From: Escherichia coli
Lineage (GTDB): Bacteria > Pseudomonadota > Gammaproteobacteria > Enterobacterales > Enterobacteriaceae
DNA length: 64,000 bases
Strand: one strand, 5' to 3'
Assembly: GCF_024700885.2 (NCBI RefSeq)
Contig: NZ_CP117016.1
A program made the position numbers and the translations under genes. Positions 19,596 through 20,027 of the stretch are shown one piece after another. The notes under the pieces were generated by a model that did not search any database, was not told the origin of the DNA, and saw only the letters and a list, made by a program, of their open reading frames with translations. Position 1 is the stretch's first letter, and the number at the start of each line of letters is the position of its first letter.

Positions 19596-20027
19596 ATGAT
19601 GACATTGCCCTACCCATATTCTTCCTCCGCACGCTTTTACGCGCTGCGCCTGCTCCCCGGGCAGGAAGTTCTCTCCCAATTACGCGCCTTCGCGCAGCAA
19701 CAACAACTCCACGCTGCGTGGATTGCAGGTTGTACCGGCAGTCTGACTGACGTCGCCTTACGCTATGGCGGGCAAGAAAACACGGCCCTACTAAGCGGTA
19801 AGTTCGAAGTCATCGCATTGAACGGCACACTGGAACAGAGTGGTGAACATCTTCATCTCTGCGTTTCCGATCCACACGGCACGATGCTTGGCGGTCATAT
19901 GATGCCCGGCTGTACCGTGCGGACCACGCTTGAACTGGTGATCGGTAGCCTTGAGGAACTGGCGTTTAGCCGCCAACCTTGCGCGCTTTCTGGTTACGAC
20001 GAATTGCATATTTCCCCCGTTAAATAA
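19596..20027 (+). CDS. DUF296 (PPC-domain) protein
   Basis: 143 aa; PPC/DUF296-like pattern (..GSLTDVALRYGG.., HLHLCVSDPHGTMLGGHMMPGCTV); first gene of accessory operon. Confidence 0.7.
   Translation: MMTLPYPYSSSARFYALRLLPGQEVLSQLRAFAQQQQLHAAWIAGCTGSLTDVALRYGGQENTALLSGKFEVIALNGTLEQSGEHLHLCVSDPHGTMLGGHMMPGCTVRTTLELVIGSLEELAFSRQPCALSGYDELHISPVK

Follow-up and report, generated by a model that had tools for sequence, protein, structure and literature searches.

The closest described counterpart of the gene considered here, an open reading frame (ORF) at positions 19,596-20,027 of a 64,000-nucleotide stretch of Escherichia coli DNA (contig NZ_CP117016.1 of assembly GCF_024700885.2; hereafter the window), lies in O-island 119 (OI-119) of enterohaemorrhagic E. 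coli (EHEC) O157:H7. OI-119 was described as a 3.12-kb island of five genes, in which z4267 was called a 'putative DNA-binding protein', carrying a DUF296 domain as well as histidines at positions 85, 87 and 101, z4268 and z4269 were called hypothetical, and z4270 and z4271 were recognized as ATP-binding cassette (ABC) ATPases (PMC7667037, Liu et al. 2020). The DUF296 protein, named LmiA, was reported to bind specific promoter DNA and to activate ler, as judged by electrophoretic mobility shift assays (EMSA), chromatin immunoprecipitation with quantitative PCR (ChIP-qPCR), footprinting and reporters; all OI-119 genes were reported to be down-regulated together upon HeLa contact, and the island was attributed to horizontal acquisition (PMC7667037). 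A second paper reported activation of gadA and gadBC, and repression of biofilm genes, by LmiA. [quoted passage not shown] For the orthologous STM3071 cluster of Salmonella (Piotrowska thesis 2018; PMC11481890), a putative five-gene ECF operon with anaerobic activation is described and STM3071 has been proposed as regulator of the transporter, and the UniProt entry for the Salmonella bongori ortholog carries the name 'Putative regulator of transporter operon'. The idea of a PPC-domain regulator tied to a five-gene ECF operon is therefore already proposed for Salmonella. In the literature LmiA figures as a horizontally acquired EHEC virulence regulator; here we find it to be the invariant first gene of a transporter cassette.

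The gene in the window is lmiA, and in this sense the feature is already known. The DNase I footprint, the -35 and -10 elements, the 90-nt leader and the three histidines given in PMC7667037 are all found verbatim in the window, and OI-119 likewise comprises five genes over roughly 3.1 kb, which identifies the gene. It occupies the same locus between epd and yggC as EHEC lmiA, with identical promoter elements and the same four downstream genes. The translation contains the His85-x-His87...His101 pattern at the positions named in the EHEC work, along with R18, R56, E71, E113 and R126. The protein belongs to PF03479 (PCC/PPC, formerly DUF296), which it matched with an E-value of 3.3e-27 and 95.6 bits against a Pfam cutoff of 25, covering positions 1-116 of the 117 in the profile, and it shares the PPC fold of the solved family members, matching PDB entries 2HX0/2NMU with an E-value of 2e-70. 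These entries are Salmonella STM3071, an ortholog with 77-78% identity and the same five-gene layout, while other E. coli alleles of the protein are 92-97% identical. In one respect the window differs from EHEC: it matches strains of the LEE-negative type (LEE, locus of enterocyte effacement), since the 3.4 kb around lmiA are 100% identical to E. coli SMS-3-5, NCTC86 and PCN033, and the ler target is probably irrelevant there. In strains with 100% identity over this region, the RefSeq annotation shows these five genes as well.

The genes downstream of lmiA, on the same strand, encode the S, T, A and A' components of an ECF importer. The S component, which captures the substrate, matched PF12822 above its cutoff (35.3 bits against 30.7) and is an S protein of the ECF type; it also matched the NCBIfam model of the CD3073-family S component with 136 bits, under the cutoff of 180. 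It is the best conserved gene of the cassette. The probable T component is so named by RefSeq, reached 22.8 bits against Pfam CbiQ, just under the cutoff of 25, and carries two arginine-containing coupling motifs, QRARG and AIRGA, that can be read from its translation. ATPase A has a canonical Walker A motif, an LSGGE signature and a Walker B motif, and the top NCBIfam matches of both A and A' are ECF ATPases, all under their cutoffs. Two ABC ATPase genes in one cluster with S and T is the arrangement of Group I ECF systems such as BioMNY and CbiMNQO. The S gene starts at 20050 and the stop of lmiA lies at 20027, and a consensus scan of the 22-nt gap returned neither a terminator-like nor a promoter-like site. 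Given the conserved linkage described below, the spacing and the reported joint down-regulation of all OI-119 genes, we infer that the five genes are co-transcribed. The first-pass annotation had proposed a PPC/DUF296 gene at this position, followed 22 nt downstream by an S-component gene and standing first in a transporter operon; the kind of gene, the distance and the first place in an ECF transporter cluster are confirmed. Its premise that proteins of this family have no established bacterial function does not hold for this gene, since lmiA is published as an activator of ler, gadA and gadBC. The operon and the linkage stand, and the unknown function does not.

To see whether the arrangement recurs in other genomes, we scanned one genome per species of GTDB with an alignment of seven PPC sequences, which yielded 80 loci, and located the five proteins of the window in them by tblastn. 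All 73 species loci with a PPC protein at least 52% identical showed the order PPC-S-T-A-A' on the same strand, with the transporter genes immediately downstream; the loci among them that were truncated by contig ends were consistent with the full order. The spacing from the stop of the PPC gene to the start of the S gene ran from -4 to +81 nt, with overlaps of the ATGA type in four lineages. Linked loci occur in about a dozen genera of Enterobacteriaceae, in Budviciaceae and Morganellaceae (Proteus, Providencia, Morganella), in Aeromonas and Ferrimonas, in Neisseriales-type and other betaproteobacteria (Laribacter, Craterilacuibacter and several metagenome-assembled genomes, MAGs) and in one Synergistaceae MAG. 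Outside the Enterobacteriaceae the cassette reaches several other orders. The flanking genes are unrelated among Proteus, Limnobaculum, an Aeromonas-like genome and metagenomic contigs. The order is kept all the same, indicating that the five genes travel as a unit. The PPC proteins of the other seven loci were only 37-46% identical, and neither an S nor a T gene was found near them; likewise, three more distant PPC relatives had no ECF genes in their vicinity, their neighbours being a LytTR two-component system, a transposase and a beta-lactamase. We therefore take the linkage as genuine and strong, and as confined to a single clade within the PPC family; the outcome that the first-pass annotation had named as refuting, an absence of conserved linkage elsewhere, clearly did not occur. 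Because the flanks differ between lineages, no substrate hints emerged from the neighbour genes.

Within E. coli, lmiA was found in 3328 of 5426 complete genomes, the transporter genes in the same number, and the two occur, or are missing, jointly. Between epd and yggC the window has about 3.1 kb that K-12 MG1655 lacks, which matches the 3.12 kb reported for OI-119 (PMC7667037), and homology to K-12 stops just before the lmiA -35 element (MG1655 locus L089, 3693-3976). In nearly all of the Enterobacteriaceae genera that were sampled, epd is the immediate neighbour of the cassette. From the position beside epd across genera and the end of K-12 homology before the -35 element, the simplest reading is that the locus is ancestral in Enterobacteriaceae and that about 3.1 kb were deleted in K-12-like lineages, rather than acquired by O157 as published; the five genes would then have disappeared together from about 39% of E. 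coli, K-12 included. With 55% GC, compared with 51% in the window, the island does not stand out. Coordinates of all features are collected in Table 1.

Table 1. Features of the lmiA-ECF cassette and its upstream region, in window coordinates.
Feature	Position	Strand	Product or size	Basis
Published PhoP DNase I footprint, CTTACGTCACGTTTTCAGC	19424..19442	+		Sequence from PMC7667037
Segment missing from K-12 (O-island 119)	19464..22590 (approximate boundaries)	.		Alignment of the MG1655 epd-yggC spacer
Published lmiA promoter	19469..19506	+		Strings of PMC7667037 read in the window
Candidate second promoter (anaerobic, FNR-type)	19523..19564	+		Palindrome plus TATTAT; putative
lmiA ortholog	19596..20027	+	143-aa stand-alone PPC/DUF296 protein	PF03479, PDB match, invariant residues
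ECF S (substrate-capture) component	20050..20628	+	192 aa	PF12822
ECF T (transmembrane coupling) component	20629..21336	+	235 aa	RefSeq product name, motifs
ECF ATPase A	21324..22001	+	225 aa	PF00005, E 1e-21; coordinates from RefSeq
ECF ATPase A'	21995..22672	+	225 aa	PF00005, E 4e-27

We examined the region upstream of lmiA for the elements that would drive such an operon. The published footprint sequence has a single exact match in the window, where none would be expected by chance. It lies at a TGA-N6-TCA palindrome, TCTGACTTACGTCACG (19419-19434), which is conserved in Enterobacteriaceae (other genera have ...GTCACATTT), resembles sites of the CRP/FNR family and fits the PhoP box consensus poorly. 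The palindrome may also serve epd, since K-12 retains it upstream of that gene. The published promoter follows, with the -35 element TTGCAG at 19469-19474 and the -10 element TAGCAAAAT at 19490-19498; its transcription start is T19506, 90 nt ahead of the ATG. Within the reported 5' untranslated region we identified a further palindrome, CTGACTTATATCAG (19523-19536), of the pattern CTGAT-N4-ATCAG (CTGATTTATATCAG in most other genera), followed by TATTAT at 19559-19564. The spacing of palindrome and TATTAT fits a class II FNR site centred at -41.5, with a predicted start near 19571, and suggests a second, FNR-type promoter, in agreement with the anaerobic activation reported for the Salmonella operon. 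Of the Enterobacteriaceae loci with upstream sequence, nearly all have the CTGAT-N4-ATCAG pattern 63-85 nt upstream of the ATG, and the TATTAT behind it is conserved as well; the exceptions are one Phytobacter and one Trabulsiella locus. The pattern is kept in Buttiauxella too, where the cassette lies elsewhere in the genome and not beside epd. In the scan for FNR-type sites the palindrome was found in Enterobacteriaceae only. A riboswitch in the leader was considered and rejected, with no Rfam match at E-values up to 1 between 19250 and 20100. Folding of the 120-nt leader gave nothing notable (z = -1.5). At 19575-19588 there is a small conserved hairpin, UCCGA-GUU-UCGGA, whose 3' arm contains the Shine-Dalgarno sequence GGAG, 8-11 nt upstream of the ATG; it might limit translation initiation.

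The nature of the protein itself bears on what it could do for an importer. An alignment of 38 relatives, down to 33% identity, left thirteen positions invariant (R18, P21, G48, R56, E71, G77, H85, H87, G99, H101, E113, R126 and L137), a pattern which suggests a ligand or metal pocket. Plant AHL proteins carry the same Pfam PPC/DUF296 domain and bind DNA through AT-hooks, whereas LmiA, which is acidic (isoelectric point 5.8), has no AT-hook and contains neither RGRP nor GRP. Plant PPC domains are not known to carry the His triad. The 'DNA-binding' label of prokaryotic PPC proteins appears to derive from these plant proteins. The nearest characterized folds to LmiA are zinc enzymes, the fold being common to alpha-acetolactate decarboxylase (ALDC) and PTD012, which are zinc His3 enzymes. 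ALDC binds zinc via H-x-H...H plus Glu and Arg, and its local motif GYHEHFITDDRKGGGH (6INB) resembles GEHLHLCVSDPHGTMLGGH of LmiA, a likeness at the level of the sequence pattern only; LmiA corresponds to one half-size domain, and a profile search of the PDB found no sequence link between PPC and ALDC. PPC relatives with 38-47% identity were found fused to an HMG box, half of an EamA transporter, RNase H, a GlmU-like nucleotidyl/acetyltransferase, NADAR, DUF924, GGACT and PTH2 (our sequences P0138, P0153, P0212, P0235, P0247, P0255, P0151 and P0213). Such heterogeneous partners argue for a generic binding or oligomerization module. These features leave room for an enzymatic or ligand-handling role of LmiA, possibly beside regulation, and do not overturn the published DNA-binding data.

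We propose that LmiA is a first-cistron regulator coupled to the ECF importer through its metal/ligand pocket, with control of LEE co-opted from this role, and we hold this model with middling confidence. Transcription would start upstream of lmiA, from the published PhoP-dependent promoter and the putative FNR-type promoter, and probably reads through all five genes, such that LmiA would be made together with a dedicated ECF importer. LmiA would act as a transcriptional activator, as published for ler, gadA and gadBC, while its native role across the lineage would be that of a soluble partner of the transporter. The metal/ligand pocket would serve as the sensor for the imported compound, or for its availability, and relay the signal to gene expression. 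LEE control in EHEC would then be a later co-option of an older, transporter-linked function. We are less confident of the sensing step than of the model as a whole, and far more confident of the identity of the gene and its membership in the operon. A small soluble ligand-binding protein encoded within an ECF operon has a parallel in YkoF of the Bacillus subtilis ykoCDEF thiamine/hydroxymethylpyrimidine operon, although YkoF has an ACT-like fold unrelated to LmiA and its ligand is known. Several observations weigh against this model. Deletion of z4268-z4271 left adherence and LEE expression unchanged (PMC7667037), meaning that the published LmiA activity was independent of the transporter under those conditions. 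A single laboratory has supplied all DNA-binding data for LmiA, with protein at micromolar concentration in the footprints. Reading representative upstream regions by eye revealed no motif common to all lineages. The motif published for LmiA, taken from the ler promoter, is not matched in the window even with up to 3 mismatches allowed; there is thus no sign of autoregulation, and we rejected autoregulation through this motif.

In the main alternative, LmiA-type PPC proteins would chiefly be zinc-dependent enzymes or cytosolic binders, modifying or trapping the compound imported by the ECF system, with DNA binding secondary, moonlighting or weak. lmiA would then be comparable to the kinase or binding-protein genes in other vitamin-uptake operons. 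The specific DNA binding published from EMSA, footprinting, ChIP-qPCR and reporters counts against this, as does the negative profile search described above. No PPC protein is known to have catalytic activity, and we consider this alternative possible but clearly less probable than the regulator model. A bolder form extends it to all His-triad prokaryotic PPC proteins, which would be zinc enzymes or ligand handlers and not transcription factors at heart, with LmiA an obligatory cytoplasmic partner of the ECF system; this we regard as rather doubtful. If it were true, the ECF importer would belong to a class not recognized before, one that anaerobiosis and low magnesium induce; LmiA would process or sense the micronutrient brought in, and the virulence regulation reported from EHEC would lie downstream of this or be moonlighting. 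A more intimate association, in which LmiA is a physical cytoplasmic subunit or gate docking on the S or T component, would account for the invariant gene order and tight spacing and for the fusion of one PPC relative to an EamA transporter. It would also be in keeping with Citrobacter sp. R56 (L019 8001-9031, NZ_CP069159.1), where the lmiA stop is lost (...ISPVNPSPGKRFFMAHRQF...) and an in-frame PPC-S ORF of 343 codons results. That fusion is confined to one species, however, and may stem from a recent mutation or an error in sequencing, and an AlphaFold2 model of it, computed from a shallow paired alignment of 23 sequences with a probable trimer modelled as a monomer, gave a predicted TM-score of 0.53, linker confidence (pLDDT) below 50 and no defined interface. 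Since LmiA moreover complements in trans and acts without the transporter genes (PMC7667037), docking seems improbable to us.

For the Salmonella cluster a different explanation has been put forward, namely that it is a cobalt importer of the CbiMNQO kind with the PPC protein STM3071 as a cobalt-responsive regulator. The thesis title and the phrase 'suggested to import Co2+', as cited in PMC11481890, point that way, and a three-histidine site could bind Co or Zn. If this were a cobalt system, then the S protein should resemble CbiM or NikM, yet a Pfam scan at E-values up to 0.01 returned PF12822, a general small-molecule family, and no CbiM/NikM, and by NCBIfam the protein is CD3073-like. No extra small membrane gene of the CbiN/NikN type lies in the cluster, which sets it apart from CbiMNQO/NikMNQO systems, and the 'cobalt' label stems from the CbiQ and CbiO names in Pfam and TIGRFAM, under which T and A components in general are grouped. 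On the type of its S component we rejected cobalt import for the cluster, leaving it very little probability, and the proposed assignment for Salmonella finds no support here. Finally, the adjacency of lmiA and the transporter might be incidental, with lmiA an independent gene. The absence of any effect of the transporter deletions on the published LmiA phenotypes (PMC7667037) would be expected in that case, and within E. coli the divergence among lmiA alleles (many at 90-95% nucleotide identity) exceeds that of the transporter genes (95-99%). Against this stand the order and strand kept in 73 of 73 species despite different flanks, the stop/start overlaps, and the joint presence or absence across 5426 E. 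coli genomes. Synteny effectively refutes incidental adjacency, and we give it almost no credence.

These comparative data shift the question from how an O-island gene controls LEE to what the ECF importer carries and why it always comes with a PPC protein bearing a metal site. An answer would provide the first native function of a prokaryotic PPC protein. The substrate would be that of what is probably the only ECF-type system of E. coli, a view based on a cited statement that K-12 lacks ECF core components; other ECF systems in E. coli were not searched for. Beyond the substrate, interest attaches to how poorly the published role in DNA binding agrees with an enzyme-like protein that is strictly linked to a transporter. 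PF12822 also contains QrtT of the QrtT/QueT systems for queuosine precursors. The cassette differs from these in that no preQ1 or other riboswitch reached the Rfam gathering score upstream of it at 10 diverse loci, in line with the result for the window, and no queuosine genes are adjacent. SEED/RAST may label the Salmonella Typhi orthologs (STY3230-3233) a 'queuosine-regulated ECF transporter', which would be a lead only.

Several further observations concern the genes of the cassette and their surroundings. lmiA occurs in two allele classes in E. coli: 1860 genomes have an lmiA with 90-95% nucleotide identity to that of the window, while in almost all genomes the transporter genes reach 95-99%. 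Compared with strain 95-3192 (L095 401-832), the LmiA of the window has nine amino-acid differences, clustered in residues 26-74, and the promoter is nearly identical in the two strains. The allele pattern suggests a segment of lmiA that has recombined or evolves fast. Both ATPases (about 225 aa each) are shortened in Enterobacteriaceae: among loci L002-L081, A lacks some 53 C-terminal residues, and A' lacks 25-50, that are present in every other lineage. A' also has a degenerate signature motif, LHSAQ instead of LSGGQ. In the Synergistaceae locus (L074) A and A' are fused into a single ORF, and in Klebsiella michiganensis (L022) and Escherichia sp. ESNIH1 (L038) the A' frame runs on for more than 200 codons, which may reflect a fusion or a lost stop. 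In the window, the cassette is preceded by mscS, fbaA, pgk and epd on the minus strand and followed by a minus-strand block of yggC, fumE, glpX/yggF, yggP, cmtA and cmtB, and the 3' ends of the A' gene and yggC overlap convergently by 29 bp (22644-22672). The intergenic region shared by epd and lmiA contains, at about 19340-19355, the sequence TGAAACGCTTCAGC, which is conserved across Enterobacteriaceae, resembles the consensus of the Cra (FruR) operator, and probably belongs to the epd-pgk-fbaA promoter.
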